Source: Lytechinus pictus (taxonomy: Eukaryota). From it: a DNA stretch of 64,000 nucleotides. The notes under the pieces were generated by a model. It made no database searches. It saw only the letters and a list, made by a program, of their open reading frames with translations, and had not been told where the DNA came from. How positions within the stretch are numbered: the stretch's first letter is position 1; every line of letters begins with the position of its first letter. This document shows, piece after piece, positions 40,675 through 64,000 of this stretch. Location of the stretch: NCBI RefSeq assembly GCF_037042905.1, contig NC_087245.1:26724001-26788000 (forward strand), written 5' to 3'. Made by a program: the position numbers and the translations under genes.

Positions 40675-40790
40675 TATTGCGAGGGGCCGATAACATAAAC
40701 AGTCATACACTCACATACACTATACACCGGGAAAAGGTCCTACCTTATAACTTGTTAAGCACAGCTCACTCGTATATTATAGGTCTGCTA
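40675..40790 (-). repeat. 3' LTR, distal part
   Basis: tattgcgaggggccgat...ggtctgcta matches 62581-62689 apart from a 7-bp indel. Confidence 0.93.
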
Positions 40791-41689
40791 CAGTATTGCT
40801 CGGAATAAAGTTGACACCCTTCCGAAGGGTCACGCATCTACCGCGAGACAGGCGTGACCCAAAAAATTACCACCAGCCGATTTCGCGCGTGAAATTCACG
40901 CGTCAATTTCACGCATGCAGCTGGCAGAAGAGAGGCCCAATGCTCACGTAAAACACGAGATTTTTTTCAGATTTGATCTCTATTTGTTCATGTAGTTTGC
41001 GCCTCAACTCTAGGCACTTTTTTGTCAAAACACGACGCAATCCCGATGCAATCCCGTCGGTTTACTGATGGATGGTCTATTATCACTTGGTCTAATCATC
41101 AGATGGGCTAACAACATTCGGGCTAAACCCACTTAGTCCAATTCTCTTTTAATTCACCATCCCGTCATTTGCACTTCAAGATATTCAACCCGATAGACAG
41201 CGGGTTGAAAATCCTAAATTCCCAATAGCTAGACAGCGGGTTGAAAAACTGCCTCAAGCGCGCGCATCAGACGAGTCCCCGCTAGAAATCCATGTGCCCA
41301 GCTCCTGACCGAGTGACCCAGTTATAGTTACATCTTTGGCTTAAAGGACGAGTAGATTATCTTTCCACTGTTTATTTGTGGAGCTAGATCCATGGTTTAT
41401 TTTTCAGTGTTTATGTTATCAAAGACGTCTTCCGTTTAAAGGACAAGTCTTGCTTTTTATGCAGGTTCCCTCATATTTCACTCTTTTAAATTGTCTTTAA
41501 TTCCAAATCGCTATTTTCTTTAATTTGAATTAATTGTTGTCTGATTTGTATTCTCATAAGTTTTCTGATATTATTTTCATAATTTTGTTTGTACTTGTGA
41601 AATATGTAAAATAAAGTCAAATCAAGTAGATAATCTTTTTCTATCTTTTATTTTTTATCTTTTGTTCTTCAATTCTGTAATTTTAATCA

Positions 41690-42905
41690 GGTACGTATTT
41701 CATTCAAAAGAACGAGTATTTTCATCATTTTTCTATTCATCATTCAAAGAAGAAGATTCGCTTTCCATCATTTTCTGTTCATTGTTTTTTTGTTTTTTTT
41801 AATCAGTAATACATCGTTCATTTAAAGGACGAGTTGATTTGCTAACCATCATTTTCTGTTTATCAATTCTGTTTTTTCTTCAATTTCCTCACTTACGTCT
41901 TTTAATCAAAGATTCGCTTTCCATCATTTTTCTGTTCATAAATTCTGCATTTTTATTTTATCAGTTACGTCGTTCATTCAAAGGACGAGTAGATTTGCTT
42001 ACCATCATTTTTCTGTTCATTGATTGACCCTTTTTTCATTTAATCAGTTACGACGTTAATTCAAAGGACGAGTATAATTCAGATTTGAGTTTTATTATGA
42101 AGTTATGAAACAGAGATTTAGAATCAAGTTAGAATTAATCATAGTTATAGAACATTAAAAAAAAAAACACAACCAATGAGATGTGAAATCCATTAAGAAT
42201 GGAACAGATATTACTAGATTTGCTAACCATCATTTTCTGTTCATCAATATTCTGTGTTTTTTTTCATCACTGACGACTTTTATTCAAAGATTCGCTTTCC
42301 ATCATTTTCTGTTCATTAATTCTGTATTTTTATTTTATCAGTTACGTCGTTCATTCAAAGGAAAGTAGATTCGTTTTTCCCAATTTCTGTTCATCATTAT
42401 TCAGTTTTTTTTAAATAATTTAATCATTTACGTCTTTTATTCAAAGAAGATTCGCTTTCAATCATTTTTCTGTTCAATTCTGTATATTTTATCAGTTACA
42501 TCGTTCATGGCAAGAACGAGTTGATTCCTTTTCCATCATTTTTTGAGTTCCATCAATTCTGTGTTTTGTTTTCATTGTTCATCAGTTACGTCTTTTATCT
42601 AAAGAAGAAACGCTGTCCATCATTTTTCTGTTCAACAATTCTGTATTTTTATTTTATCAGTTACATCGTTCATTCCAAGAACGAGTAGATTCACTTTCCA
42701 TCATTATGACGTTCAGAGCACGAGTAGATTTGCTTTCCATTTTCCTGTTCATCAATTCTGTGTTTTAATTTAATCAGTTTCGTCTGTTTATTCAAAGAAC
42801 GAGTAGATTTGCTTTCCATCATTTTGTGTTTATCAATTCTGTGTGTTTATTTTATCGGTTACGTCTTTTATTCAAAGATGATTCGCTTCCCATCATTTTT
42901 CATTT
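41690..42905. repeat. Degenerate ~70-80-bp tandem repeat inside the 8-kb TIR element
   Basis: Recurring ttcaaag(g/a)acgagtagatt.gctttccatcatttt.ctgttcat. Confidence 0.8.
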
Positions 42906-45364
42906 TTTCGCTATCAATAACAGTTGATTTTATACCCAAAGATATTAATTAACAATATCATCATCATCATTTGTATATTTATTCTCCTCATTCAATTCTT
43001 CTTATGTCTTTCACTTCTTTTTGTTCCTGTTCTTCTTTCTTTACCTTTATCTTTACCATGTTCATTCGTTCATCCATCATATCATCTGTTGCTTCTCTCT
43101 TATCCTTATCTTCTTTATCCTTTATTTCTTTCTCTTAGCCGTCGTCTTCTTCCTCCTACTTCGCCCACTTTCCTCTTCGATCGGCTATCTTGAACCCCCC
43201 CCCCCTTCCCGGAAAAAGAATACCCGCAAGTGGCCCTGCTTTAAATGCCTAGCATCAGCACTTTCTGAAAAATCTTATTCAGCCCCCCCCCCCCTGTATC
43301 TTCCTTAAATATTTTTTTTGCATGTTGTGTTACTGTTCCCTTTCTCTCCGTCCATCATTCCAGCAACAGCCTCCCCCTACAAGTAATATATCGTCTTTTT
43401 ACGCCCGCCCGTATAAGACGAGACGTAACTTGGTATCACGCTCGGTATCCGTCTGTCCCTCCATTCGTTAACATTTCCTTATAAACATGATAACTCCAGT
43501 TTAACTTAACCCGAGGCTTATATTATTTGGTGTGTATATGATACAAGCGTCAAAAGGTCAAGTCACCACCTTCCACTTTTTTTGCTTGACCAATATACTC
43601 CATTTTCCGTGTAACCCGAGCGAACACAAAAAACATTGACAAAATATCAAAAAAAATGTTTGGTAAAACATGAAAATGTTGAACGGAAATGTTAAAATCA
43701 TATAAAATGTATGGTTTTCTCAATGCTATAATACATTTTCCTAACGTTTAGCATTTAAAACGTATTTCCCTAATGTATTTTAGTAATATTAATAAAATGT
43801 TGCAATGATATATTTTTACGAATTGACTCGTTTTAATCCATGTGCATATTATCTCTTGCTAATTTGTTTATTTATATTCATTTTATGTTGCCCTGTGTAC
43901 TGTTCGTCTATATAGAACAGACAACCTGGACTTATTGTAATTGTTTCTCTTTTTATCAAGAACAGGTGATTTTATACAAAAAATATAATTGATTTTCAAT
44001 ATCAACATCTTCCTCCTTATCATTTTTCTCATGGCCATCATCGTCACTCTCATCACCACTCCGGGCCCCCAAATGCCGACTATATTGGACAATTTGGGGG
44101 TGGGCATTGATCATAGACTGGCTTAATCACTGATCAGTGGGCCGGCTTAATACATGTTCTATTCAAACAGTTACACAAAAGATCATTGTGTAACTTACAG
44201 TCTTCTCATTGTTAGCTGTTCTATAATCTTCACACCTCTATTCATTGTCCACAAAACGCGCCAGACGGTGTAATTAATTGACCCCAGTCAAGTCCACATA
44301 TAGCTAGGGTTGTTCAATTCAACCACGTTTCAAGAGTAATTAATATACGAGTAGATTCCTGATCTTATCTAATATCTGTATAAAATAATGTACACATTAG
44401 ATAGGGAAGATTGATACTGAAGAAATAAAACAATGTAAGAGTCTTGTACCGTCATATTATACATGTATGACTGATGGAACGATTGAAGTTAAAGAGAAAT
44501 GCGAGAGAAGAAAGGAAAGAATGATCTGAAGAAATAAAATAATTAAATGTATATAGACTTAAAAGAGATCGAACAAGAACGGTAGAAGAATAAAAGATAA
44601 GACAATAACAATTGATAGTGAATAAAATAAAGGGATAGACGTAGAAGATATTCAACAAAAAATTAAGAGCGATAGAAGAAAAGAGGACCGGAACTATTGA
44701 TATTGAATAATAAAATAAAGGGATTGACTTAATAGAGATTAAGAGAAATTAAGATATATATATATATATAGCAGGCGTATGTGTACGTGTAGAACAAGAG
44801 AGGTTGATACTGACTAAATGAAAGCAAATGATGGATAAATTGGAACGACTGATAAGAAAAGAAATACATGTAACCCATGCACCCCCTCACCCATGCTGAT
44901 GCCAGGCCGTCCTCGACTATACCCGATGTTCAAACTATAACTATGTTGTGCATTAAATGAATAAGGTAAGTTTGTCTTTCCACATTTCTAGCTGATTGTT
45001 TTACTTTAATCATTTTTCATACACATTCATGAAAAACGTACTGCGCAATTTAATGTCATTTAATTGGATATATTTCTTTTTTTGATTTAAGTATACTGCC
45101 ACTTCCGGACATAATTGTTTCCATTATTGTTATATTGCTTGGTTTTCCCTCATTCGCTCCCTTAATAATTTTAATCACATCATATCACTACTGAAGTTTA
45201 GGGGTGGATCCAGCTTTTTCAACGGGGCCCGGGGGTTGTATGCTTATTCAGTAAAATCTTACAAGTTGATAAAAAATGAGTTTCACTCCCAAATAAAGGT
45301 AATATATTCCACGAAAAATCTGAACATAAAAGCAAAAAGAAACCTAAACGAAAAAAAGTCAGTT

Positions 45365-45599
45365 CATGGCCGTATGCAGCGGGGGGGGGGGGGGGGGATA
45401 TTGAAAACTTAATGTTTTTTTTTTTTTACAAAATTAATTAAAGGCATGCACGAAATGCTTCAATTGCCCTTTACAGAATGGAAAGACGCAATGACAAGCT
45501 CGGTCACTTTTCTCACTTCCTTTCAATTTTTTATATTTTATGCATCTTGCCCACCCCCCCCCCCCCCCTACCCGCGAAAAATTTCTGCATACGGCCATG
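45365..45599. mobile_element. MITE with 8-bp TSD
   Basis: TIR catggccgtatgcag; (a/g)gtcagtt flanks. Confidence 0.75.
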
Positions 45600-47120
45600 G
45601 GTCAGTTCACTATGTCCGATATTTACCACAACAAATATTTTAATGACTCTCGATTGAAAGGGGGAGGGTGCTTATGCCCCCCCCCCCCCAATCCTCTACG
45701 GCTCAAATTCACATTTTTTTTTAATTTCAAAATTTGCTTGTTTCGATTTCAAATGGGATTTTCAATTTCAGAAAAATTTTCCTTAGTACTTGTTCCCATT
45801 CTTTATAAAGTTCTCGCTATGCCTCTTAGAACTTGTTTTTTGTAGTATTTCTCGTTGATATTAGGCATAATCTATTCATTTTATTTTACTCCTAAATCAT
45901 ACTATAATTAAAAGAAAAAATCCATCTCGTGCGATTACTCGTTTATGCTTTTGCAGATACCGTACCAGAAATGCACGAGCTCGAAAGAAAATCAGATTGC
46001 TTGAACTAAGTTACAACAAAATCACCAAATAGAAAGTATTTCGTGCTTTTTGTGCTATCCCGGTGATTGTTACTGAATCTAAACTCATTCTCTTCGGTAA
46101 AATGATACAGGTATTGTATTTTTTTAATGATGGACGTCCATTTTAGAGACAAAATCGGAAGTATATGCACTGTCACTGTCCTCTCTGCCTCTGGTCACAT
46201 GTACCGCCTACTACTGGTACCGTCGTGTACCGTACGATGACTACCTAGCTTAGCTACCGTATACTATTCTCGTACTAGTGACCGTGTGATGGTAGCTAGC
46301 TAGCTAGTACTTACTACTTAGTAGTACAATTCTTCAAGACTTAGTTAAGCCCAGGCCTAGCGTTGATCGTATACCCATATATGCTTACTTTGTCTTTGTG
46401 GCAATGCAGATATCGACGAGTGAGGGATATGTTAAGCACATTACAATTACAAGCCTTCACAAGGCACAAGCAATTTTAATAATGTTGATTCTACTCGATT
46501 ATCATAATGTGAATGTCCAGTCTGATCCTTTTTATGCCCAGTCGCCATATTATTACCAAGTTAGTAAAGATCTAGTACCACTAAAGATCTATTTGAGAAT
46601 ATCGACTAGGAGTAGGATTGTAGATCTAGTCTAACCCATGCTCATGATTATGACAGTGCAGAGCTCCGATTTATCTCTATTCTGGATATGCTATCATAAA
46701 GAAATACGAAACCTGCATCATTGGACTGAAGAAGAGTAAGTCTACAACATGCACGTACTAACGTTAGGTCTACATTTTTTAAAATACAGACAGCAAATTA
46801 ACAATGTAAATGTTAATTTGCTGTCTGTATTTTAAAAAGATGTAGACCTGACGTTAGTACGTGCACATGGGCGAATTTGTAAGCAAACATAACCGAAGAT
46901 ATAATACTAATTACTTACAGTTAATTGACCTGATGTTAATCAGGCCAATGTGATCCATTGTCTGACTTCAGTGGTTCATCTTCGTGCCTGGCTTCAGGCT
47001 AATCCACCGTTGGGTCTTAGTTAAGACCAAATCTTTACTTATATTGACAAATATACATCTATATATCAAATCAAATGCATGTTTCTAAGGAATGATAAGG
47101 GGAAAAATGAGTCGAGCAAG

Positions 47121-47469
47121 CATTAGCGTACCTACGGGGGGGGGGGGGGGGGGGGCAGAGGGTACAGACTGCCCCCCCCCTGATGAGTCACGACCCATGC
47201 AAGAGACGTATCCCTGCCCCCCCTAACGAGCGAGCGAGATACAGAGATGGCCCGCTCCTTTGAACTTGAAGACCTTTTTTTTTGTCAATTTTTTTTCTGA
47301 TATGAAATCCATAATTTGTGGTTGAAGCCCTTTATTTTTATTTTTCTTGTCAAAATTTTTCCTGGTATAATATCTTTTATTTCTGGTCGAAGACCTTTTT
47401 TTTTTGCTTGTCAATTTTTTTGACGAATTTGCCCCCCCCCCCCTTTGGAAAATCCTAGGTACGCCACTG
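47121..47469. mobile_element. MITE with 8-bp TSD
   Basis: Imperfect TIR ca(tta/gtg)gcgtaccta; CGAGCAAG duplicated. Confidence 0.78.
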
Positions 47470-48804
47470 CGAGCAAGAGATGACAGCAGAGGTGACGTGA
47501 TTCAGTGAGAGGAGAGAATATAAAAACAATTCTGAAAACTACCATTCGAACAATGAAGATTAATAAAAATTGATAAAGATATATGGTTATGACAATCGGG
47601 TGACAATAAATTGACACTTAATTTTTTTTTCTTTGTTAATTCATAAACACCAGATTGAGCGTCGCATAACAACAAAAAAAGGGATTCAAAAGGATTGAGA
47701 AGAGTGGAGTAGAAAAAAAGGGTAGGGATCGAGGGAGAAGTGAGCTGAGATAGCGATAGAGTAGAAATTCAAGAGTGAGACATGGGTAAAATGGAAATAT
47801 ATCAACATCAAAAACGATAAAAAATAAAATATGAGGAAACAAGGGAAAAGAACACTGATTGTAATTAAGCATGAGTCAAGGACATTCGTGTTGCAATCAA
47901 ATTAAGCCCTGTACGTCCTGTGTTTGTGTGACTGGATCGAGTGGTGGGAGAAAAAAGGGAGTTTATCATTCCTTATATCATAATGGCGGAAGAATGTTTG
48001 GCAATAATGCACTGAAAATATGATGAAATTAAATCATTCTGGTTGCAAACAAAGTAAGAGAATGACGATAAAGGAATGTAAGGAAATAAACAATAGGTCT
48101 GTTTTTTCCAGCCTCGCGGCGTCTCTTGCTTAATCTAGCCACCCCGCCCCCCTTTCTCTCCATTTTCTTTTGCTCTCTCTCTCTTGATCATTTCCCCCTC
48201 CATCTGTCTCTCGTATCTTTCGCTCTCTCCTTCTCTTGCTCGACTCTGTCCATTCTTATCTTGGATGCTCCATTTTCTTATAACTATTAACTACTTATCC
48301 CAGAAAGTACGTGATCTCATCTCGACCCGACTTTCATTCAACGAAGTTCAGAAAGATGTAAATTTGAGGGCGATGACACGAGCGTGCATTAAAATTGTGC
48401 ACTCGCGCCAAGCTCAACAGCTCTATGATCTTTTTTTGTTTGGGTTTCGAGGAGACGGCATCTTACGGCAATAAGTTGTTGCTGTACATCGTAATTTCGA
48501 GAGAGACATCGCGGCAAGTCAGGAGGGCTAATTCGAGCCATGTGAGTTGTCCAAATGGTGACATTTTATTAATTATCAAATCAATATCTCTTCGACAGAA
48601 GATCGTCCCTCCTTCTGCGGTATTATCGCGGTAATACACGAGATTTTCAATTAAAAATCTCGTGGTACATTACCGTGGTAATTTCTCTCAGAGTGCGACT
48701 CCCGCCGATGAAAATTTGCTGGTGGTAATCGCGCGCGACCCGATTTCACATCGACTTACGCGGTACAGCGCGGTAAAGCGTCAACTTTATTCCGAGCAAT
48801 ACTG

Positions 48805-48997
48805 TACGTCCGGGGGCTGAGTATGGAATGGTGTTTCTGTGATTCCATGTGCAGTACCGGTGTGTGTATATGGTTGGTTTGTGTGTTGTGCGCAAGTTTT
48901 CCCGCCCGTGGGTCAGGTGACGTGATGTGTATAAACTGTCGTCTGCTAGCGATGTCTTCTGCTTAAATACTACAATGATTCAACCCCCCTAACACTA
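48805..48997 (-). repeat. 3' LTR, proximal part (starts with the duplicated TA)
   Basis: tacgtccggggg...aacacta matches 62688-62864; abuts the PPT. Confidence 0.93.
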
Positions 48998-48999
48998 TA

Positions 49000-49726: not shown

Positions 49727-51019
49727 TTACTTGAGGCAATACAGCTCCCTGGCGTTAATCGTCGTCTGATCGAGTAACTCTGGTAGAGGAACCCCTCGGA
49801 TAGACGCCACCACCTGCCCGACATCGCCGATAAAGGATTCTGTTTGCCAGCTGTGGCGAGGGCGGACGGGCAGGAGACTATTTCTCAGAATGGACCAAAT
49901 GCCAAGCCTCTTGAGCTTGGCATTCGCTCCATTGTAGTATGAGGCGCGTGACACCAAAGAACGCATACGGGAATGCTGACGTCCATTTGTCGACGATGTC
50001 CGGCGAACCCATGAAACAGTGCAAATGGATGCGCTGAGCGGCCGGACACCGTCGGCGAATAGCGTCGCGCGCCAGCTGGTGTATAGCGCGCGGGATAGGC
50101 TCATTGCCGGGACGAGAGCCATTGGCCCCCGGAGGTGGAGTACCAGGACTCTTCCGGTGGAGAGCCCCAGGAGCTGCTCAAAAAGCTGCTCCTGTGCCCC
50201 CCACTCGGAGTCGTCCGTGGACCAATCAAGGCCCAACTCCGACAGGCCTCTGACTCTCGGGTCAGCGAGAGCCGATCGCAACGCCTCAATGCTGTAGCGT
50301 TTAAGGCCAAAGGCCTGCTTTGGGTGGATGCCCACCGCCACTGCGTAGCCTTCAGGGAGTTCCTCGAAAACCCTGTCGAGGAAGCCGGGGGCGGAGTATC
50401 TCACTGGATCGCAAAAGTTCCATACTCCTCCGACTTCCTCGACCGGGTGTTGAGGCCGTCCCTGAAGTTCCGTTTTTCCTTTCTTTATTTTTATTCGATC
50501 CGGATGGAAGTGTGAATCGAATGCTTGCAGTGGCCGTGGGCTCTCCCCCAAAGCTTCCTCTAACATTTTTGGGGTTATTCCCCGCCCTCTCCCAATGGAG
50601 GGACACTCCACTGGATGGGGTGGTCTAGGCCAAGTGGGCAGTAGTCCACGGCCACGACCAACCCCAACCGTAAGGCCTCCACTGGTCGAGGGACCGGCTT
50701 TTGATCCAGGAAGCGGGCCTTGCGCCAACTTTTTAGCCTTCTTGGCACGCTTGGCCCGCTCTTTTCTGCGCCTGTTTAGCTCATGCTTTTTTTTAGCAAG
50801 CTCGGCCTCGTAGAGCTCCTTCTTCCGAGCATCCGCCCCTGCTGGTGCAAGAGGCGGACCCTCAGAACGGGTCTCTGAGGCCTGCTGCCTATTTTCAATT
50901 TTTGTTGGTTCGACTTCAGAGGGGGGCTCAGTGAGGGCTTCCTCTGGGGCCGAACCAACGTCTACCTCAATGTCATTGAACTCCACCCCCGGGGGTAGCA
51001 GGACTTCCTCTCCCTCCAT
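49727..51019 (-). pseudogene. ORF3: acidic/basic low-complexity N-terminus plus TatD-family metallo-nuclease domain (frameshifted)
   Basis: DSHFHPD, GIHP, SELGLD, QEQLFEQLL, VLHLRG, then IHLHCFMGS in another frame, and C-terminal TTINARELY. Confidence 0.88.
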
Positions 51020-51150
51020 TTTCTCTCTGTATGGGAAGAGAAGAATGATGCACAAATGGGGGGGGGGGGAGAATTTGGGGAAAAAAAGAAATATAAACAT
51101 GATTATTAGACGACTCATCATAATAGATGACGCATTTGTTTAGAAATATT

Positions 51151-52550
51151 TTACCTCCTCTTAGTACAGGGGGGGCAAAACCATTTCAAGTTCTCTAATC
51201 CTTCCGTCTCTGTGATACCAACGCACACTCCGTGGTACCATTCATTGCATTCTTCGCAACATATCATCAGAGAGCCATCATCAGGCTTCCGGCAGAAACA
51301 ATAGAGTTTGTCTCTGCCGGGAGTCTCAATAACCGCCCTACTCTGATCCGTACACTTTTTCAAGCGGTCATGATTATAAGTGGCTACTGTTTTTCTGAAG
51401 GCCACCCTGTAAAGATATGGGGACCTCTTCTCTACAATGATCGCCGGCCCTTTCCAAGGGATTTCCCCTTGGCACAGGCCGTGTCTCTAATGTAGACACG
51501 ATCATTCACCTCAAATTCCCGAGTGTATTGTTTGATATCGTAGTCTCGTTTCATCTTGCGCTGAGCAGATTTGATTGCAGCCTTAGCTGAAATGTGAGCA
51601 TTACGCATTGCACAAGTCAACTCGGCCACATATTCTTCTTTGTCTGCTCTTGAGCGGGTTGAGGAACAGAGAATACGAGATCAGAGGGTAGATTAACCTC
51701 CCGACCCAGCATTAGCTTGTTAGGGGTAAATCCAGTTGTACGATTTACAGAGGAGCGGATAGCACCTGCGATCTGCTGGAGATGCCTATCCCAGTCCCTT
51801 TGAGATGTAGCATCGCACTGCATCCATCACGGTCCTATTCGCTCTCTCCACTTGAGAATTTGCTTGGGGGCGGAATGCGGTCGTTTTTGACTTGTGAATG
51901 TCAAGGACACGGCACATGTCCTTGAAAAGTGTACTCTAAAAATTTCTGCCCTGATCCGTGAAGATTTTAAATGGATATCCGAACCGGCAGAAAAAACTGC
52001 TCACTGCAGCATGAGCCGTCATCTCTGCAGTTTGGGAAGGCAAAGGTACGCATTCCACCCATTTGGTAAATTGATCTACCATAACCAAGATGTTTTCATT
52101 ACCATGTGTTGTCTTTGGTAGTGGGCCCATGAAGTCAAGATGGACACGTGCCATGGGGGCGCTCGCATGAAAACTTTTCATAGGATGCCTCCCAGGGCGG
52201 GTCGCTTTCTTGTTCTGATTGCAAGTGGCACACCTGGCTATGTAAATGCGAATATCTTCTGACATGCGATACCAACAATACTTGGACTTTAGCTTAGCCC
52301 GAGTACGATTGATCCCAGCATGCCCTGCTGAAGGAGGATCATGATTTAGCCAAATGATGTCATGCCGTAGTGATTCTGGAATCACTATAACATCACCTAC
52401 ATCCTTCTTCATCCAGATAACCCCTTCTTTGAGGTAGAAGAGTTCTCTGTTCGTCCACAAGAACTTTCCCTCTGGCGGGAGGAGAAACAGAGTCCCTTCA
52501 TCCAGTACTTTCTTGTTGGTTAACCACTCACGGAGGGGCGCGAGGACCTG
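51151..52550 (-). pseudogene. pol: pol: integrase (H2C2 + DDE core + tail) ending in a PHD finger; frameshifted
   Basis: HDPPSAGH...CATC, DFMGP, VDQFTKW, TDQGRNF, VERANRT, NHDRLK followed in frame by a C4HC3 PHD. Confidence 0.92.
51166..51303 (-). other. PHD finger (CFP1/Spp1-like) at the integrase C-terminus
   Basis: YCFCRKPDDGSLMICCEECNEWYHGVCVG...WFCPPC; all 8 zinc ligands present. Confidence 0.93.
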
Positions 52551-54546
52551 GGGTGGTATTCTGAAAACGTTCTTATCTTTGTTCTTATCTTTTATCTTAT
52601 CTCACTGAGATAAGAAGACGCTAAAATCATTGCAAATCGGTATTCTGAAAATCTTCTTAACGCGTTCTTATCTCTGTAAGGACTGCCTCCTTCTTATCTT
52701 CAACACGCCCATTTTTAGGATATTACCAATCAAAATGCGCTTTATATTGGCAGTTTAACCAATAGAAGCGTTCCTTATGTGAAGAGAATATCATGGGCAC
52801 TGCGCGTACACTGTTTCTGGCGCATTGCGCGAAATAGGCATTTTGTACGCAATGACTGATTTTATTATTTCGAGACGTCCACGTGCACAAAATAAAGACA
52901 GAAAAGTAAATAAAGCAGGTACGAATAAGGAATAAAATATGAAGAAAGAAAGTAAGTAGGTATTGAAGTAAGAAGACAGAAAAGGGTCAGAATGAAGCAG
53001 AAAAAAAGATGAAAGGAACAAAGCAGAAAAATGAAAAAAAATAGAATAAACAAAAGAAAGCAAGCAAAATAACTCAAAAAGAAAAAAGAAAAAAAGAATG
53101 AATAAAAGAAGGAAAAAGAAGAAAGAAATAGAACAATTATCAATGATAAAGTGAAGGGAAAAAAATATAAAAAAAATAAAGAAAAGAACGAATCTATAAA
53201 AGGAACAAAAAAAGAAAAAGATCAGACTAAAAATAAAAAATAAAGTAACAAGGAACCGAAAAGGAAAAAAGGTTTGAAAAAAAACGAATGAAAGAAAGTT
53301 AGAAAGATAAAAAAGAAAGAAAGAGAGAAAAAGGGAATAAAAATTTAAAAAGTGAAGGAAGAAAAAAAGGAAAATGAAACATGAGAGAGAAATAATGAAA
53401 GGAAAATTAACGCAAACATGAAGACTACAAAAAGCTAAAGGAAAGAAAGCTAAATTCAAAGAAAGAAAGAAAGAAAGAACAAAAAACGAAAAGGGAAAAT
53501 AAAAAGTTAGGAAAAGAAAACGAAAAATAACATCAATGGAAAGAATAAAGAAAAAGTTAATAAAAGAAAGACAGAGAGAAGAAAGAAAGTAAAGACAAAT
53601 AGTAAATGAAGAACGAACAAAAAATGAGCGAAATAAAGAAAAAAAAGAAAGAAAGTAAAAAAAGACACAAAAAGTGTCAGAAAGCAGAAATAAAAAAAAT
53701 TAAGAAAGAAAAATTAAGAATTAAGGGAAGGAAGAAAAAGAAAAAGGGAGAAAAATAAAATCAATGATTAAAAAAAATGAAAAGCATATATAAAACGAAA
53801 GAATTTAAGAAAAAATAAGGAAGAAAAAAAAAAGATTACAAATAAATGAAGGAAGAAAGAAAGAAAAGGAAAGGAAGAGAAAAGGGGGAAAGCAGTAATA
53901 AAGACTCAGTAAAGAAAAAAAGAAAGAGATAAAACGAAAAGGGAAAATAAAAAGGAAGAAAGATGAAGTATAAATGAAACAAAGCAAAAGAAAAAAAAAT
54001 GAAAGATTCAAACAGAAGAAAACAAAAGATATAATTGAAGAATGAAAGAAAAGAAGAAAGACAGACAGATAGAAAGGAAGAAAAATAGAAAATAAATAAA
54101 AGAAAAGAAAGAAGGGATAGAAAAGAAGAGACGGTCAAAATAAAGGGTGAATTAAAGAAAGGGTGGGAGGAATACTTGTGCATTGGTATTTGTTACTACT
54201 AGTGGCCATCGATTTTGAGCAAGAAAGAACGCGTACATCGTGAGATGTGATTACCCTCTAGCTATCTTAAATATTATCTTAAATATCGTGAAAGATAAGA
54301 AAGAAAAAAGATAAGAACGTTTTCAGAATACCACTTATCTTCATTTTGTTCTTATCTTTTTAGCGCGCTTTTGTATTATATGCGCGAGTAGTAAATTTAC
54401 GCGCTCAGCATAGGATGGAAAGCAAGATAAGAAAAAGATAAGAACAAAAGATAAGAAAAAGATAAGAACGTTTTCAGAATACCAATTTGAGATCATGACG
54501 TAGATAAGAACAAAATTAAGATAAGAACGTTTTCAGAATACCGCCC
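52551..54546. mobile_element. PIF/Harbinger-type non-autonomous element inserted in pol
   Basis: 29-bp TIR ggg(t/c)ggtattctgaaaacgttcttatctt; CTG TSD; removing it restores the in-frame QEKDQVLAPLREWL; ~1.3-kb A/G-rich interior. Confidence 0.9.
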
Positions 54547-54549
54547 CTG

Positions 54550-55317
54550 GTCTTTTTCTTGCTCTTGCTTGACTAAATTGTCAGAAGGCGGTTCCTCTGC
54601 CACCTCAGCTGGGTCAACTGAGATACTTCAGATCTCAAATGAGTTGGCCTTGTTGAACAATATTTCCATGTGCGTGACAGGGAAAGTTTCTTCAACAGCC
54701 ACATTCGAGACCCTTTGGCTTTGACTTAATGGCACAACATCATCGACACAGTCGACAAAGTGCGCCCATTCTTTGTGTCTTTTGGTACAATATGAACACC
54801 CACCACACGGCAAGTCCTGTAGTCGCACACCATGCTCGTACCCTTCACACACTGATTCTGTATCAGGTATGTGCAAAAGAGAATCCGCATTAGAGTGGCG
54901 CCTACCGGGCCGGTGTTCGATTTGCATATTGTACTGCCCTAACTCCTCCAGCCAGCGAGACAGCTGTCCCGTCGGCGTTTTGAAGTTGAGCAGCCATGTG
55001 AGACTACCATGATCCGTTCTGACAGTAAAAAATGGCCTTCCTAAAAGGTAATGCCTATACTGTCTGCAGAATAACACCAACGCTAAGAGCTCGCGGCGAG
55101 TGACACAATAGTTCCTTTGTTGAGGAAAGAGAGACAAGCTGCCATAAGCTATGACCTTCTCCTCACCATTCTGAACTTGTAGCAGCTCTGCTCACATCGC
55201 TGTGCTAGAAGCATCCGTATCTAGGATGAACGGGTCATGTGCGTTTGGGAGTGTGAGCACAGGGGCTGAGGTTAAGAGAACTTTGATTTGTTCAAATGCC
55301 TTCTGATGAAACTCTGT
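54550..55317 (-). pseudogene. pol: pol: RNase H (frameshifted)
   Basis: APVLTLP..DPFILDTDAS, RNYCVTRRELLALV, TDHGSLTWL, NADSL. Confidence 0.9.
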
Positions 55318-56502
55318 TTAACTAAAAGCATTGTTGCCTGTGAGCTCATACAATGGCCCAGCCACCCGTGCATAGTCTTTCATAAACACCCTGTGATAGT
55401 TGGCCAACCCTAGGAAATGTTCTACTTCTTTAGTGGAAGCAGGGGTAGGCCAATCCACTACCCTTCGGATGTTTTCTTCTGGTAGATGCAAGCCTGTAGC
55501 ATCCACTTCCCTACCCAAGAACTCCACCTTTCGTTGAAACAAGGCACACTTCTTGGGTTTCAATTTGAGTTTGTAGTCCTTGAAACGCCTCAGGACTGCC
55601 CCTAATACCAGGATATCATCCAAGAATGCAATGAGCCACGTCCCATGTGAGACCTCTCAGGACTAAGTTCATCACACGTTGGAAGGTGGCCGGCGCATTG
55701 CACAGGCCAAATCCCATGCGGACGAACTCATACAGCCCATGTTTTGTAACGAAGGCCGTTTTGTCCCTATCTGCTTCGGTTACCTTGATTTGCCAATAAG
55801 CTGCAACGCATCAAGTTTGGAAAACCACTTGTTGCCCGCTAAAGTATCAAGGCATTCTTCGATACATGGTAAGGGGTAGACATCCTTTTTGGTGACATTG
55901 TTTAACTTGCGGTAATCAATGCACCATCGAACTCCTCCATCTTTTTTCCTCACTAACACAGGGGGCGATGCTCATTCAGACATAGACGGCTGGATAACTC
56001 CAGCGGCAAGCATCTTGTCGAGATGTGCCTGCTCCTCCTGAATGAAATTCAGGGGGGTCCGCCTCATCTTTTGTTTTATGGGCCTTGCATCACCCGTGTC
56101 TATGCTATGAGTTACCTCATTGAAACCACCAAGGTCAAACTCATCTTTTGCGAACACTGATTGATATTTTAGTAGCAGCCCTCTCAACTCCTCCTGTTCC
56201 TCTGGGGCCAGCCCCTCAATAGAGCGGCCCCAAAGGTCCAGAAGGTGAGGAGGTATGTCTGAGTCCGAAGCTTCTACAGTGTTGATACTCCTAACTGTGA
56301 CACCCTCTGAGGGTTCTATCACTGAGACTTGGTAAGCTTTCCCAATCATATCACCCCTTCGTAACTTGTAGGTCATGTCAGAGGGATTTATCAGGAAAAC
56401 TTCTGTATCTTTCTTACTTTCATGAAGGCTCCGGGGTATAAGAACGGGTATGGGCAGGAAAGGCAAAGGTTCCACCAAGAATGGGCTAGAATTAAGTGCC
56501 AC
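55318..56502 (-). pseudogene. pol: pol: reverse transcriptase (frameshifted)
   Basis: HSIDTGDARPIKQ, PVLVRKKDGGVRWCIDYRKLN, DVYPLP, FLDDILV, LKPKKCALF, FLGLANYHR. Confidence 0.93.
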
Positions 56503-56523
56503 CGAACACTTAACCCTTCGAAA

Positions 56524-57117
56524 CTAACATGGAGGAACACAAACGCCCTTATCTACACACACCTTTGCCGTACTCCCCGAATCTTCGCGTTGGATTATTG
56601 GTAGGTTTTCACCGTTCAGAGTTAGGATAGCATTTGGAATGCTAATATTGGCGTTGTGTTTTCTTAATAGATCAACGCCAAACAACATCTCATCTGCTAT
56701 CGGAGCTACGTGAATCTCCTCGTTGAGTATTTGGTTACCCAGCTGGAGCTTGATAGGTCCTATCACAATGCCATCCATTGTCATGTCTCGGCCAGCCCCC
56801 TTAAGAACTACACGCTTAAGGATTGGCAGCCGAGGCTGGAGGCGATGGAAAAGCCTATCAGATATAATGGTGACAGCTGCCGCAGTGTCCAAAACGGATG
56901 TAATGGGCTCCTTGCCAACTGTCAACTCAACACTCAATGTTGAAGTAGACACAATTCTACAAATGACTTCTTCAACCTCTTGATCTTTAACATCACCAGA
57001 AATGTCTGGTGGCCATGGCGGATTCCTCCAAGGGTGCTCAGTTACCTTAGAGAATTTCGGGCTCCCTGGGCTTGCTTGTGAGTCCGGTGCCTGTTGGTTC
57101 CCATGGTCTTGTGGCAT
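56524..57117 (-). pseudogene. pol: pol: aspartic protease
   Basis: VLDTAAAVTII (DTG-like active site) and MLFGVDLL. Confidence 0.88.
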
Positions 57118-57128
57118 AAGGCTGCCCT

Positions 57129-59513
57129 TTAATGGAATGGGGATGGCGGGGGAGGGGATCTCTGATCGGATCGGGGACTCCCCATCTCCGCCGATCCCTG
57201 TCCATTTCCCTCCTCCTCGAAGGTTACAGCCCTTACTTGTCTACTGTTCACAGGCGATCTTCCCATGGGGCAGGCCCTGCTGAAATGGCCTTCTTCCCTG
57301 AAACAGCCTGTGAAGTTTCGCTGACGATCAGTTGTAGTTGGCGGAGGGCCAGAAAATGGCCTTCGGCCTCCTACTGACCGATCTGGTGTCAAATTTGAGT
57401 TAAACCTCGGCCTGTCTGGCGTACCTGGAGCCCGACCAGAGGTATACTTTGGTCTGTCCGGGGTACCAGGAACTCGGCCGGAGGTGTATTTCTGCCTGTC
57501 AGGTGTAACAGGGGCACGGCCTGAGGGGTACCTCGACCGGCCTACCGACACCGACAAGAGTTCCTTTGTGCTTCGAGATAGATCCGTGATCGCAGCGACC
57601 ATCGAATCCATCTTGGATGCCCATACTGCATTTTGGCCTGCCAGAGCACTTATTCTAGCCTCAAGGCTAGAATTTCCCTTCTTGGCAGCCTCTTGGGGAG
57701 ACATCTTTTGCACCCTTAGGTCATTATCATCATTTCCCATCGAGAGCTGCCTTACCTCTTTTCTCGACCTAGGGCCATGCGTATGCATGGTCTTCTGGGT
57801 AAACTGAAACCATGTGTACTTAGTCATGTCTTCATCTAATGTCCCAGGACGAGAAGTCAGGACATGATGCCCTGCATCTTTGTCTTGGGCACCTTTGCAG
57901 AACCTTGCCACTACAAGTTCTTGGACGAACTTGTCTGGAAGGCCTACAAAGGCCTGACCTGCAAGTGTCATAAGCCTATCTGCCCATTTGATTATGTCTT
58001 CATCCGAGCGTTGGAAAGCCGATTGAAATTGCATCCGAGTAACTTCCGGCTCATCCTGGAGAGCAAACCGCTTCTCCAACTTGGTAACCAAGTGAGAGAA
58101 GGAGATATTTGGGTTGCTCTCCTGGATGAGAGCCATGAACTTACTAGCTTCAGCCTCCAACGCCAGACACAGCTGATATTTCTTGTCTGCATCAGACATG
58201 CTGTGTCTTTCGGTGTATAGTTGGAACTTTGAATAGAAGGCCGCCCAACTTCCTTTGCCGTCGAACGAAATAGTCTTCGGCAAAGGGGTTGGTCTAGAAG
58301 GGGGCCTTCTGTCGTCATACACAGCACCACAGGTCTTGAGGCCGAAGTCTGGTGACGCGGGGCGGTTGATTTCTTGTTGGCAGCCCCAAGTATCCAGGAC
58401 TTACTGATGGCCTTGTGGTGTTTCTGTGTTCATTGTATACTGGGTCTCCTTGTCCATCTCCTTGGGGTCCAGTGCCTTGATACACAGGGTTGCTACCCCC
58501 ATATTGCAAGTCACATGGTCCTTGGGGAGAGGTTTGCGGGGCCACAGTGTTAGGATATTGTGGCGGATATCTGCCTCCAACCCATGGTGGGCAATATCCA
58601 CCATAGGCGGCAACAGGGTTGCCGTATGGAGGAGCTGGTTGTCCAATTCCTCCAAATGGCATCATTTGCATCATCCTAAACATCACGCCATACATTTCCT
58701 CATACTGTGCTTGTGTAAAGTGTGGAACGGCCTGTGGATAGCTATGTGGAGGTGTCTGGGTAGTTTGATTGAACATTGCTGGTCGGCCACCCTGAGCTCT
58801 GGGAGCCTGACCATGCAAATCTACCTGGGCATGAGGACCAAATTGGAACTGGGGTCCTGGTGGGGAAGCTACCTGGGCACGAGGACCAAATTGGAACTGG
58901 GGTCCTGGTAGGGAAGCTACCTGGGCACGAGGACCAAATTGGAACTGGGGTCCTGGTGGGGTAACTTGGTGGGGACCCTGTGGTGGGAACAGGCCATCGT
59001 TCCATCCTGAAAATCCAAATTGATTTGCCCAGAGGGACTTAGCCCTATCTTCTGGAGAGGCCGAAGGCTGCTGAGTAGAAGCGCCACCTGGCCTCCCCCC
59101 TGTGAAAAATGAGGGGGCCTCCCCGGCCTGTGTCTGAGAAGACTGGCCTACGGCACCCTGTGCGCTATGTGCACGGGTGTGCTGTGGCCAAGCCTCAAAC
59201 GCCTGGCTCACGGGGGGCTCCTTTGATTGAATAAGTGAACGCTCGTAGAAGGCTCGTCTCCTTTGGAACGCACTTCTCTGCGGTCAACATTACGAGCCGT
59301 TGTTGTTGGCTCATAATCAAAGGCGTAAACTAACAGTCCCGCCTTCGGTACGTGAGGTATTGACAAGAATATATCCGGAGTAAGGTCGGCCGCCTCGGCC
59401 GCCTCCCTCGCGTGTAGAATGCGGTTGGCGGTGGCCATACCCACTCTGGGCAGACTCATCAATTCCTCAGACGAACAAAAATTGATTTTAATTCTTGGAA
59501 TGTTGCTTGCCAT
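57129..59513 (-). pseudogene. gag: gag: N-terminal HhH, Pro/Gln/Gly-rich spacer, capsid-like domain, degenerate zinc knuckle; two frame breaks (~59210, ~58320)
   Basis: ATG at 59513 in aagATGG context (MASNIPRIKINFCSSEELMSLPRVGMATANRI); ISFDGKGSWAAFYSKF capsid-type motif; CFREEGHFSRAC knuckle remnant. Confidence 0.82.
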
Positions 59514-59691
59514 CTTGATGTAGGGAATAAAATTAATCAGTAACCAAAAAAGACTCACAATAGTCAATTGAAAATAAATTTGGGACAAATTAAATTCCAA
59601 AATTGAACTGTAATTAACCAAAAATTATCCTGCAGACTACTTTGTCTTGCGGATAAAATCAAAATAAATCTGGGACAAAATCAACTTTTAA

Positions 59692-62580: not shown

Positions 62581-62864
62581 TATTGCGAGGGGCCGATAAC
62601 ATAAACAGTCATACACTCACATACACCGGGAAAAGGTCCTACCTTATAACTTGTTAAGCACAGCTCACTCGTATATTATAGGTCTGCTACGTCCGGGGGC
62701 TGAGTATGGAATGGCGTTTCTGTGATTCCGTGTGCAGTACCGGTGTGTGTATATGGTTGGTTTGTGTGTTGTGCGCAAGTTTTCCCGCCCGTGGGTCAGG
62801 TGACATGATGTGTATAAACTGTCTTCTGCTTAAATACTACAATGATTCAACCCCCCTATCACTA
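62581..62864 (-). repeat. 5' LTR (~284 bp)
   Basis: Matches the split copy with 4 substitutions and 2 indels (7 and 16 bp) by eye; directly adjacent to the PBS. Confidence 0.93.
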
Positions 62865-63822
62865 TAGCTAATATGGCCCAACTTTTTTGCTTGTCAAATT
62901 TTACACACGAAAATGTGCCCTCCCCTTTAAAAAATCCTGGATCCATTCCTGATGTAATCTTATAATAACCTGGGAAATGAAGGTTTATTTAAAATGTTTA
63001 TGTAAATCTTTAAAAAAAAAAAAAAATTTATTGAGATCATTAGTTGGTTGATTTCGATACTATATGATTAATTTTTATTCATGGCTATGAAGGAACCCTG
63101 TAATGTTAATTTCATATTCTGATTATATCTCTTGTTGTATAAATAAAAAATCAGACTAAAACTTTTGAAAAAAAATTAATTCATTTTGTCTACTATTCAT
63201 GGAAAAATTTCTATTCAGTGGGTGTGGATGCAAGAGATGTGTGCGTATATATTAGGGACGCATCATGCATCATTAGATATGGGGGGGGGGGCTAGAAGTT
63301 TTTCCAAAAAAAAATTGACTTGCTATATGTCATATGAGCAAAAAAGAAAAAACTTGACTCAGCATCAGAGTAAAAAAAACTTGGTCCACTGAAAAATCAT
63401 CTGAAACTTAACATTTAACAAAGGTGAAAAAAAAACTTTTCTCAATGAAGGAAAAAAACTAACTAAAGACTTTGTCAAAGAAAGGGAAAAAATTGCATCA
63501 ACCCAAACTTCCAGCCCCCCCCCCCCTGGGTATCTAATGGTGCATCCCTTAGTGATGCTCAGATTGGATTTCAAGATGAGTTGGATGTGGGTGGCTGGGT
63601 ACTGGTTAACCCAGGGAACTCCCGCCCGCACGGCGGGCGGGAGCCCAGGGGCTTACCGTGTATTTGACCATACTCACGGGACTAGCGTGATTTATGGTCT
63701 AAATATTTCTCCAAATGAATTGTGAAAACAGAAATTATTCACTTACCACGATTATATGGATGAAGGTCTAACGAGTGGCAGTTTCCTGACATCGAGGCAC
63801 AGACTGGAACTTCAAAAAAACG

Positions 63823-64000
63823 AAAAGTTCTCTCCTTCTACCCCAGTCTCGATCGGCCATTTTGTTACGATTCATAACAAAAATGGCCGATCGAGACTGG
63901 GTCTGGGGTAGAAGGAAAAGTTCTCTCCTTCTACCCCAGTCTCGATCGGCCATTTTGTTACGATTCATAACAAAAATGGCCGATCGAGACTGGGTCTGGG
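63823..64000. repeat. 93-bp tandem repeat of a hairpin unit (runs off the window)
   Basis: cccagtctcgatcggccattttgtta-loop-taacaaaaatggccgatcgagactggg, twice. Confidence 0.9.

Follow-up and report, generated by a model that had tools for sequence, protein, structure and literature searches.

A family of Ty3/gypsy LTR retrotransposons in the sea urchin Lytechinus pictus encodes an integrase that ends in a PHD finger, and the same arrangement occurs in relatives from other echinoderms and from molluscs. Judged by sequence and predicted fold, the finger belongs with readers of H3K4me2/3. We therefore predict, with a probability of roughly 60%, that this integrase-fused finger binds the methylated H3 tail and tethers integration to active chromatin.

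PHD finger in frame with the integrase tail

The window (the whole 64,000-nucleotide stretch of L. pictus DNA analysed) contains a stop-to-stop frame of 111 aa on the minus strand (51486..51151) that reads ...WKGPAIIVEKRSPYLYRVAFRKTVATYNHDRLKKCTDQSRAVIETPGRDKLYCFCRKPDDGSLMICCEECNEWYHGVCVGITETEGLENLKWFCPPCTKRR*, the exact string quoted in an earlier sequence-only reading. That reading had placed the NHDRLK motif of an integrase tail in frame with a PHD finger, and the fusion is confirmed, on the minus strand. PF00628 (PHD) covers residues 63-107 of the frame with its profile complete (positions 1-47; E = 1.7e-11; 44.4 bits, cut-off 24 bits). The tail (WKGP...NHDRLKKC) and the complete finger share this single frame with no stops between them, and the pol stop follows 4 residues past the last zinc ligand. 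The frame is made up as follows.

51352..51456, minus strand: integrase C-terminal beta module, WKGP...NHDRLKKC, a GPY/F-type tail (conservation, AF2 model)
51304..51351, minus strand: flexible linker from integrase tail to PHD (pLDDT 56 over residues 41-50)
51166..51303, minus strand: PHD finger, Y52 to C97 of the 101-aa tail (PF00628, solved-structure matches, column conservation)
51151-51153, minus strand: pol stop codon (window frame)

In the beta module, W1, G3 and P4 never vary among 57 sequences, and conservation is at least 90% at H29, D30 and R31; the AF2 model folds it as three strands with pLDDT 91-94. The linker differs in both length and sequence between family members. A frameshifting indel at about 51460-51480, where the frames 51680..51432 and 51486..51151 overlap, cuts tail and finger off from the remaining integrase of this copy. 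Thus the statement that the integrase ends in a PHD finger is true of the family, and of the window copy only as a relic.

Structure and decay of the window element

The window copy is a dead Ty3/gypsy LTR retrotransposon, as is evident from its frameshifts, a 2-kb insertion of simple sequence and a split 3' LTR. From 5' to 3' of the element, the parts outside the tail frame are the following.

62581..62866, minus strand: 5' LTR, about 286 bp (blastn of the window on itself; repeat families D8 and D11)
59208..59624, minus strand: start of gag (MASNIPRIK...), with a helix-hairpin-helix-like N-terminus (ORF list)
57129..59283, minus strand: remaining gag, frameshifted into two overlapping frames, 58315..59283 and 57129..58400 (ORF list)
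56524..57240, minus strand: N-terminus of pol with aspartic protease (ORF list)
55318..56523, minus strand: reverse transcriptase in two pieces, 55972..56523 and 55318..55656 (domain and ORF calls)
54628..55191, minus strand: RNase H (PF17917, E = 1.3e-22)
52602..54627, no strand: about 2 kb of purine-rich simple sequence splitting pol between RNase H and integrase (GC 0.24, AT skew 0.72, repeat family D1)
51936..52601, minus strand: integrase zinc-binding domain (PF17921, E = 2.1e-18) and first three quarters of the catalytic core (PF00665, E = 1.4e-8)
51432..51935, minus strand: remaining integrase, broken (ORF list compared with intact pol)
49727..51139, minus strand: ORF3, a degraded gene for a TatD-family nuclease (PF01026, E = 9.1e-12)
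48805..48999, minus strand: 3' LTR, inner part (blastn of the window on itself)
40792..48804, no strand: about 8 kb of DNA inside the 3' LTR, presumably foreign given the split LTR match
40675..40791, minus strand: 3' LTR, outer part (blastn of the window on itself; repeat family D11)

The two parts of the 3' LTR were recognized when the window was aligned with itself by blastn: 62688-62866 matches 48805-48999 at 89.7%, and 62581-62690 matches 40675-40791 at 94.0%. Frames of 80 aa or more are absent between the reverse transcriptase pieces and from 51681-51935, about 27 residues of intact pol are missing at the simple-sequence insertion, and the separate frame 51680..51432 runs into a stop codon where it overlaps the tail frame. 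In ORF3, only positions 1-131 of the TatD profile are in frame.

Intact copies in the same genome

An intact pol (P0001) of 1385 aa is a single uninterrupted frame with the same junction between tail and finger. Its Pfam domains are protease (105-193), reverse transcriptase (434-592), RNase H (656-784), integrase zinc domain (968-1026), rve (1041-1138) and PHD (1337-1381), so that an integrase-PHD fusion exists in an undamaged protein, with the finger at its very end. The sequence-only reading had named a conserved stop between integrase and finger as fatal to its proposal; in intact copies the junction is open. The gag of an intact copy has matches to the HHH profiles PF12836 and PF00633, a PNMA-like capsid region and a CCHC zinc knuckle, and ORF3 is intact in other copies (PF01026, profile positions 1-252 of 253).

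The genome contains 51 matches, 19 of them within open frames of at least 1000 aa. At least eight subfamilies show 44-94% identity to the tail and finger of the window. LTR pairs were found for 23 of the 30 copies examined; identity between the two LTRs was at least 99.6% in 15 pairs and 100% in five. Target-site duplications are 4 bp. An intact copy has a purine tract ahead of its 3' LTR and a primer-binding-like site (TGG...) 1 nt past its 5' LTR. The element thus shows the features of Ty3/gypsy (Metaviridae-type) elements: LTRs, a CCHC gag, domains in the order PR-RT-RNaseH-IN, a short target-site duplication and sites resembling a PBS and PPT. The PHD-bearing family is young and widespread. 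In three raw RNA runs, about 6 in 100 of each of which was read, only 9, 4 and 15 reads matched, most of them partially and to a 36-bp piece.

Conservation of the fusion

PF00628 stands at the end of pol in 63 of 84 related proteins, from sea urchins, a starfish and molluscs; the named sources are L. pictus, Diadema setosum, Acanthaster planci and Nucella lapillus. Atlas clusters combining rve with PHD are most frequent in Mollusca.

The window copy has all eight C4HC3 zinc ligands, and each is retained in 56-57 of 57 family sequences. The earlier claim that the tyrosine, methionine and tryptophan of the H3K4me3 cage are retained holds well beyond the window. An aromatic residue precedes the first cysteine in every sequence (Y in 50, F in five, W in two; Y52 in the window), Met64 is kept in 56 (one has Tyr) and Trp73, two residues before the His ligand, in all 57; the window has both. 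Position 68 is acidic in 53 of 57 sequences and position 72 in 55, being E68 and E72 in the window; as a general rule, the acidic residue or residues of a PHD finger receive Arg2 of H3, according to the text consulted (PMC8166343).

Among eight subfamilies the non-synonymous p-distance of the finger is 0.12-0.33, similar to the dN of the integrase's own tail, and in 27 of the 28 subfamily pairs synonymous sites have reached saturation. These comparisons show, at the level of sequence, that purifying selection has conserved the integrase-PHD fusion across echinoderm and mollusc lineages.

Sister clades without a PHD finger exist, with a basic tail of the type RRGR...P..L.D[FY], so the finger is dispensable for an integrase of this kind. 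On an integrase tree confined to the relatives found with this protein (including one chromodomain-like outgroup row, P0086), and with seven truncated rows left out, the finger requires two state changes, which fits one gain and one loss or two gains.

The finger resembles readers of H3K4me2/3

The closest solved relatives by sequence are PPS, DIDO1, CFP1, TAF3, BPTF, PHF2/8 and Spp1. Drosophila PPS (1.4e-15) and DIDO1 (2.3e-14) score above CFP1 (6.9e-13), which TAF3, BPTF and PHF2/8 about equal. The AF2 model (pLDDT 86.5) retrieved the same proteins with Foldseek, many of them solved with an H3K4me3 peptide, 20 at E ≤ 1e-3. PPS and DIDO1 structures occupied ranks 1-4 and CFP1 came at rank 24; 5wlf/5wle, 4l7x and 2f6j were within ranks 1-10 (5wle at rank 2, 4l7x at rank 4), with TM (target) up to 0.81 and rmsd 1.0-2.9. 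The methionine of the finger aligns with the cage methionine of DIDO1 and TAF3, mutation of which is stated to lower binding 15-fold to more than 100-fold in the part of PMC8246079 consulted.

Sequence and predicted fold together support assignment of the finger to the H3K4me2/3-reader class. The label 'CFP1-like', given by the sequence-only reading, is right as to class but loose, as PPS and DIDO1 score higher. A specific relationship to CFP1/Spp1 was rejected for the same reason, and only PR, RT, RNase H and IN accompany the finger. With the host readers PPS/DIDO1, CFP1/Spp1, TAF3 and BPTF it has in common the C4HC3 fold, the aromatic-Met-Trp cage and 40-55% identity over the finger. In contrast, their other domains (SPOC, TFIIS-like, CXXC, bromodomain) are absent here and the finger is fused to integrase instead.

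A complex of the finger with unmethylated H3 (residues 2-41) from the same genome was predicted with a score of 0.43, against 0.02 for the best of three controls. This counts as 'weak support': of 78 solved complexes 51 came up to the mark, as did 2 of 108 mismatched pairs, but at scores of 0.60 or less it was reached by only five of the 78 solved complexes and by all four mismatches that passed. At least 88% of contacts agreed between runs, and the pLDDT of the partner was 54 or more. The pass may reflect memory of similar solved PHD-H3 complexes.

Insertion sites

Insertion sites were compared in an exploratory way, using flanks of ±500 bp at 22 PHD-bearing insertions, 26 other young LTR elements (hand-picked) and 60 random windows. 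All PHD subfamilies were pooled, because the LTR of the window subfamily finds few copies. As the copies are young (LTRs up to 100% identical), their sites should be little filtered by selection.

Median flank GC was 0.389 at PHD-bearing insertions, compared with 0.358 at other LTR elements (P = 0.007) and 0.356 in random windows (P = 0.002), a shift of about three points and one among six comparisons. The CpG observed/expected ratio of the flanks was above that of random DNA (P = 0.026) and no different from that at other LTR elements (0.86 versus 0.75, P = 0.23); it was given no weight.

Host exons lay within 2.5 kb of four of the 22 PHD-bearing insertions, two or three of them encoding a protein N-terminus (BLTP1_N, Anamorsin_N and perhaps ArfGap). 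They were also near four of the 26 PHD-less elements, again with two or three N-terminal (Mesd, split between exons 1 and 2; 7tm_1, positions 1-126; Xpo1). Closeness to 5' exons is equally frequent in elements that lack the finger and is hence not PHD-specific, so it was discarded as a sign of promoter targeting. On the earlier suggestion that the element may target active promoters, these 22 exploratory sites show a modest GC shift relative to other LTR elements and no excess of neighbouring 5' exons over PHD-less elements.

What the finger may do

In the proposed mechanism, the protease would leave the finger on mature integrase, joined to its C-terminus by the flexible linker. The finger would bind H3K4me3 or H3K4me2 and thereby hold the integration complex on nucleosomes in active chromatin. 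Binding may then bias insertion to the 5' ends of active genes, the opposite of the heterochromatin targeting guided by chromodomains. A stronger version, to which we give somewhat less than even odds, is that an active echinoderm/mollusc LTR clade has swapped the chromodomain logic for an H3K4me3 reader borne by the integrase and truly aims at active-gene 5' ends, the GC shift being a first trace of this.

Alternatively, the finger could be a general chromatin anchor that keeps the pre-integration complex on nucleosomes by way of the H3 tail but has no marked preference for H3K4me3 promoters; it might serve, for instance, to retain the complex in the nucleus or to give it access to chromatin of any kind. 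The small GC shift and the lack of a PHD-specific excess of 5' exons would fit this, as would the weak pass of the complex prediction with unmethylated H3; the basic tail of the PHD-less sisters could presumably anchor nucleosomes as well. However, a full methyl-lysine cage in 56-57 of 57 sequences would be unexpected were methylation irrelevant, and the nearest solved fingers are all readers of methylated K4, none of H3K4me0. We regard a general anchor as unlikely on balance.

Less likely again is that the finger serves a step other than target choice, either by binding a protein other than a histone whose N-terminus resembles that of H3 or by aiding expression or escape from silencing after integration. 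Readers of the same class also bind non-histone N-termini that mimic H3, as described in the part of PMC8166343 consulted, the authors of a survey of reader fusions suggest in the consulted text that reader capture may help transposable elements to evade suppression (bioRxiv 10.1101/2021.11.30.470311), and the family has another unusual gene in its TatD ORF3. Against this, the finger occupies the extreme C-terminal position in integrase, an enzyme active solely at integration, behind the same GPY/F-type tail where chromoviruses have their targeting chromodomain (PMC6673714, PMC3605345, parts consulted), and no partner of this kind is known.

That the finger has no function, being a host exon picked up by accident or a read-through artefact limited to one decayed copy, might be suggested by the dead window copy with its frameshift between integrase core and tail, but is refuted, to a very small residual probability, by junctions open in the 19 long frames of this genome and in the 63 relatives from several phyla, and by a protein conserved column by column despite saturated synonymous sites.

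Comparison with known systems

The tethering reading has a close precedent in the chromoviruses (MAGGY, Tf1), likewise LTR retrotransposons with a reader of histone marks behind the C-terminal tail of integrase. Their chromodomain is thought to steer integration, and for MAGGY this was shown (Gao et al. 2008, as reported in the consulted parts of PMC6673714 and bioRxiv 10.1101/2021.11.30.470311). Here, in contrast, the reader is a PHD finger, Pfam finding no chromo domain in the window tail or the intact pol, and the mark predicted for it belongs to active promoters, whereas theirs is the H3K9me of heterochromatin.

A fusion of PHD finger and retrotransposon is, as such, already known. The portions consulted of three sources (PMC6673714, PMC8557442, bioRxiv 10.1101/2021.11.30.470311) describe retrotransposon proteins that likewise have a PHD finger in REM1 of Chlamydomonas, CR1-like non-LTR elements, Chlamys Penelope-like elements and cnidarian elements with a PYGO-like PHD, a type that recognizes H3K4me according to the authors. 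In a survey of 172 genomes covered there, PHD and Chromo were the readers most frequently fused to reverse transcriptase or integrase domains. The literature consulted, in the portions available and with Repbase and Dfam outside its scope, yielded no description of an echinoderm/mollusc Ty3/gypsy clade with a PPS/DIDO/CFP1-like finger in terminal integrase position and paired with a TatD ORF3; the supplements of bioRxiv 10.1101/2021.11.30.470311 may list such fusions. Ginger1-9_HM of Hydra also has a Gypsy-type integrase/transposase with a PHD among its extra C-terminal domains, but, from the part of PMC2836005 consulted, it moves by cut and paste as a DNA transposon with TIRs, its PHD lies beside a Ulp1 protease domain, and it has neither RT nor LTRs.

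Docking on active chromatin through a C-terminal appendage, as proposed here, has parallels among retroviruses, set out in the consulted part of a review (PMC8149907). The gammaretroviral integrase tail binds BET proteins, and this docking on active chromatin draws integration to transcription start sites (TSSs). Fusion of the H3K4me3-binding PHD of ING2 to the integrase-binding domain of LEDGF shifted HIV-1 integration toward TSSs. These systems need a host adaptor or are man-made, whereas here the reader is natural and belongs to the integrase protein.

To the known captures of reader domains by transposons, these results add a lineage that is well documented. If the finger guides integration, the family would offer a natural test of mark-directed integration into active rather than silent animal chromatin, in a host whose embryos are amenable to ChIP, ATAC and injection. 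It would also amount to a self-encoded equivalent, found in nature, of the MLV-BET and engineered LEDGF-PHD tethers, and could provide a compact and self-contained targeting module of potential interest for vector design. For the element itself, it would show that a mobile element can trade the safety of heterochromatin for a landing site permissive for expression.

The PHD finger at the end of pol

A 111-residue stop-to-stop frame on the minus strand of the window (51486..51151) carries a conserved integrase tail (WKGPAIIVEKRSPYLYRV...YNHDRLKKC), followed by a 16-residue linker, LYCFCRKPDDGSLMICCEECNEWYHGVCVGITETEGLENLKWFCPPC and, four codons on, a stop. Pfam matches the full length of its PHD-finger profile here (E 1.7e-11; 44.4 bits, cut-off 24). 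When the frame was re-read, the motif string, reading frame and coordinates from which the sequence-only reading had deduced an integrase ending in a PHD finger all proved correct, and the observation is confirmed. The frame is the pol end of a minus-strand Ty3/gypsy element, laid out as follows.

Parts of the window element, in the element's own order
62581-62866, minus strand: 5' LTR (repeat search and window self-comparison)
59624..57129, minus strand: gag, in three overlapping frames
Between the LTRs, after gag, minus strand: protease, then reverse transcriptase in pieces (frames in the window)
Between reverse transcriptase and simple sequence, minus strand: RNase H (PF17917)
52602-54627: purine-rich simple sequence of about 2 kb, between RNase H and the integrase zinc domain
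After the simple sequence, minus strand: integrase zinc domain and core (PF17921, PF00665)
After the integrase core, minus strand: a broken stretch, then the tail and PHD frame
49727-51139, minus strand, after the tail and PHD frame: degraded third gene of the TatD family
48805-48999 and 40675-40791, minus strand: 3' LTR, split by about 8 kb of other DNA

The two LTRs of the window copy are 90-94% alike, and an indel near 51460-51480 puts the tail and finger out of frame with the remaining integrase; this copy is both old and dead. The intact cage residues of this copy reflect descent, not selection at the locus.

The interval between the 5' LTR and gag contains repeats of 74-185 nt (families D4, D5 and D7; 59862-61187). 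As this leader exceeds that of the intact copy by about 1.7 kb, another insertion is probable here. The gag N-terminus is a helix-hairpin-helix (HhH) motif (PF12836/PF00633; window 59208-59624 and L032:2-1051 in a fetched copy, both minus strand), an unusual start for a Gypsy gag. Elsewhere in the window, a 180-residue open frame (36118-36660, minus strand) looks by eye like an IS1595/ISXO2-like DDE transposase fragment of another mobile element, and 93-nt units with an internal inverted repeat form a tandem pair at 63801-63986 (D10).

Intact and recent copies

A conserved stop between integrase and finger is absent from the family, because intact copies read through into the finger. Searching the genome with the 111-residue frame gave 51 matches, 19 of them in open frames of at least 1000 residues that run into the finger. 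The intact copy on contig G000:C8 is 10,455 bp long, with LTRs of 271 bp (99.6% alike), an AAAT target-site duplication, a purine tract before the 3' LTR and a TGG... site 1 nt after the 5' LTR. Its gag combines the HhH motif with a PNMA-like capsid and a CCHC knuckle. Its pol, 1385 residues without a stop, comprises protease (105-193), reverse transcriptase (434-592), RNase H (656-784), integrase zinc domain (968-1026), integrase core (rve, 1041-1138) and PHD finger (1337-1381), and its third open reading frame (ORF3) matches the whole TatD profile.

The PHD-bearing family is, or very recently was, active. At least eight subfamilies coexist in the genome (tail and PHD identity 44-94%). Among 30 copies, each fetched with 10 kb per side, 23 have an LTR pair; identity is at least 99.6% in 15 of these pairs and 100% in five. 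The flanking target duplications are of four bases with no fixed sequence. Subfamilies F and G have a Cys-rich extension beyond the finger (tails of L016, L025 and L018, for example ...CYLKWKCQECK and ...HVCF...KCIFC), which may form an extra zinc site.

Class of the finger

The closest solved structures by sequence are Drosophila PPS (5wlf, E 1.4e-15), DIDO1 (4l7x, E 2.3e-14), CFP1 (9c0o, E 6.9e-13), TAF3 (5c13, E 9.6e-13), BPTF (2fui, E 1.9e-11), PHF2 (3kqi, E 3.9e-10) and Spp1 (6j2p, E 4.9e-9), with PHF8 a further match. All eight are readers of H3K4me2/3 according to Foldseek entry titles and the literature.

A 101-residue tail and PHD segment was modelled with AlphaFold2 from a 57-row alignment (mean pLDDT 86.5). 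Residues 6-28 form a three-stranded beta module (pLDDT 91-94), in keeping with the SH3-like C-terminal domain of such integrases; a floppy linker (residues 41-50, pLDDT 56) leads to the finger (pLDDT 83-92). Foldseek returned 20 PDB hits at E ≤ 1e-3 for this model, ranks 1-4 being PPS (apo and with H3K4me3) and DIDO (with H3K4me3), followed by BPTF, KDM7A, PHF13 and PHF2/8, and lower down by DmCfp1 (24), Spp1 (25) and TAF3 (28). Since PPS and DIDO rank ahead of CFP1, as they also do by sequence, the earlier label 'CFP1-like' is acceptable for the class of H3K4me2/3 readers only and does not name the nearest relative.

The Y, M and W cage positions said to be kept are indeed retained across the alignment. 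The residue before Cys1 is aromatic in 57/57 sequences (Y 50, F 5, W 2), Met is present in 56/57 (one Tyr) and Trp in 57/57. Each zinc ligand occurs in 56-57 of the 57, and an acidic residue is found at position 68 in 53 and at position 72 in 55. The column that supplies a fourth cage wall in BPTF, position 59, has Asp in 41 sequences, Trp in seven and Tyr in three. In the alignment the finger's Met falls on the only Met that the DIDO1 finger has; according to PMC8246079, changing the cage Met to Cys in DIDO1 weakens H3K4me3 binding about 15-fold, and changing it to Ala in TAF3 weakens binding more than 100-fold.

In 27 of 28 pairs among the eight subfamilies of this genome, the finger's synonymous sites have reached saturation (pS 0.59-1.17), while its non-synonymous p-distance is 0.12-0.33, about equal to that of the integrase's own tail. 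This indicates purifying selection on the finger since the subfamily lineages diverged. There is good support in both the sequence and the predicted fold for regarding the finger as a putative H3K4me2/3 reader.

Relatives in other genomes

The last 236 residues of the intact pol matched 84 proteins, 63 of which have PF00628 at the pol end. Named PHD-bearing sources are the sea urchins Lytechinus pictus (100% identical) and Diadema setosum, the starfish Acanthaster planci and the gastropod Nucella lapillus; further matches, from bins labelled bivalve symbionts, are probably host DNA. In the protein atlas, rve+PHD clusters are commonest in Mollusca.

An integrase-core tree with PHD columns excluded (86 rows, 348 columns, IQ-TREE quick search) places PHD-bearing rows in two clades, of 64 rows (eight of them truncated or degenerate records) and eight rows; together with a PHD-less clade of eight rows, these two make up a trichotomy. 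With seven truncated rows set aside (65 rows with, 14 without), PHD presence needs two state changes; one old gain plus one loss would fit, and so would two gains.

One related protein (P0051) has a Tpt1/KptA RNA 2'-phosphotransferase domain (PF01885) between integrase tail and finger. PHD-less sister lineages (P0071, P0073-P0077, P0079, P0080, P0084 and P0085) have an acidic/serine-rich stretch and then, at the extreme C-terminus, a conserved basic motif (~RRGR..P..L.D[FY]), which may be another type of chromatin tether.

The TatD gene

Two subfamilies match the TatD profile in full (1-252 of 253; among the ORF3 loci, L031:3177-4679, L033:2312-4654 and L034:3430-5250, all minus strand); the G copy and the window copy each have a truncated gene. 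The best solved relatives of ORF3 are bacterial-type YcfH/TatD DNases (2gzx, E 1.3e-17). A starfish gene model (P0057) is an rve+PHD+TatD fusion. A literature search for TatD together with retrotransposons found nothing on topic. Just 3' of the pol stop in the intact copy (L031:4494-4532), contig depth in sequencing run X1, possibly DNA, is about 11-15 across pol and jumps to about 100-147 across ORF3. A contig break in this run lies at 4494-4496, at a pyrimidine tract and CAG that are followed by ORF3's first good ATG.

Possible targeting and insertion sites

The integrase of this family inserts with a 4-bp stagger, and a variable, flexible linker connects its last domain covalently to a reader of the methyl-K4 class. 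Most likely the finger would stay on the mature integrase and bind H3 tails bearing K4me3 or K4me2, which would anchor the intasome to nucleosomes at active-gene 5' ends. A precedent for the principle of PHD-guided integration is an engineered tether: joining the PHD of ING2 to the integrase-binding domain of LEDGF shifted HIV-1 integration toward transcription start sites (review PMC8149907).

The finger was also modelled with two zinc ions and residues 2-41 of the genome's own H3, unmethylated. The complex scored 0.43 (best of three controls 0.02; tool verdict 'weak support'), with at least 88% of contacts common to runs and partner pLDDT at least 54. The tool's mark is reached by 51/78 solved complexes and 2/108 mismatches, and at scores ≤ 0.60 by only 5/78 solved complexes and by all four passing mismatches. 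Because PHD-H3 complexes are already solved, the prediction speaks of likeness, not of binding.

Flanks of 22 PHD-bearing insertions (the 23 with LTR pairs, less one tandem copy flanked by another copy) were compared with those of 26 young PHD-less LTR elements and with 60 random 2-kb windows. The PHD-less elements were picked by hand among rve search hits, with each apparent family limited to three (30 fetched, 29 with LTR pairs, three dropped for too little flank). Within ±500 bp, median GC was 0.389 for PHD-bearing, 0.358 for other LTR and 0.356 for random sites (PHD vs other P = 0.007, PHD vs random P = 0.002, other vs random P = 0.80). CpG observed/expected was 0.86, 0.75 and 0.60, respectively (P = 0.23, 0.026 and 0.26 in the same order). 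The GC difference had the same direction at ±250 bp (P = 0.02) and ±1000 bp (P = 0.037).

Host exons were sought with Pfam in flanking frames of at least 80 residues (249/319 for PHD-bearing, 181/181 for PHD-less elements). Exons lay within 2.5 kb of 4/22 PHD-bearing insertions (BLTP1_N 28-74, Anamorsin_N 1-47, ArfGap and a weak V-ATPase match; one LINE was also found). An anamorsin-like gene has a copy with 100% identical LTRs (L149, G000:C2 near 50.07 Mb) about 0.9 kb upstream of its first coding exon, and a BLTP1-like gene has an older one (L131, G000:C5 near 41.56 Mb) about 1.3 kb downstream of its own. Exons were also found near 4/26 PHD-less elements (TRAPP14_C, Xpo1 2-50, 7tm_1 1-126, and Mesd exons 1 and 2, which flank one element). 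Two of the young PHD-less elements lie within host genes, one between exons with Mesd positions 1-21 and 22-100 (L233/L234, G000:C3 near 13.897 Mb), the other next to a rhodopsin-type GPCR frame that breaks off at profile position 126 (L264, G000:C2 near 30.206 Mb). Random windows held host exons in 5/60, N-terminal in none. Proximity to 5' exons is thus not special to PHD families and is rejected as a specific sign of promoter targeting. What is left is a modest difference in GC; the sample behind it is small, assembled by hand and free of gene annotation, and the difference agrees with the targeting hypothesis but is no test of it. Promoter targeting by the PHD-bearing family, as proposed in the sequence-only reading, is what we infer it may do.

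Comparison with known systems

PHD fingers are known in other transposons, including CR1-like elements, REM1 of Chlamydomonas, Rehavkus and Chlamys elements (PMC6673714 and PMC8557442) and one Ginger1 transposase (PMC2836005). A survey of 172 eukaryotic genomes (bioRxiv 10.1101/2021.11.30.470311) found PHD and Chromo to be the readers most often fused to reverse transcriptase and integrase domains; among its cases are cnidarian retrotransposons whose PYGO-like PHD is described as 'known to recognize specifically H3K4me'. In the literature text available to the search, with Repbase and Dfam outside its scope, no description was found of the PHD-bearing clade, its PPS/DIDO/CFP1-type finger or its TatD pairing; the survey's supplements may list echinoderm or mollusc cases. 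The PHD-bearing clade is another case of the known reader-domain fusions to retrotransposon integrases. Its integrase-PHD fusion is a conserved, selected trait of a young, widespread retrotransposon lineage, and the value of the system lies mainly in its youth and experimental accessibility.
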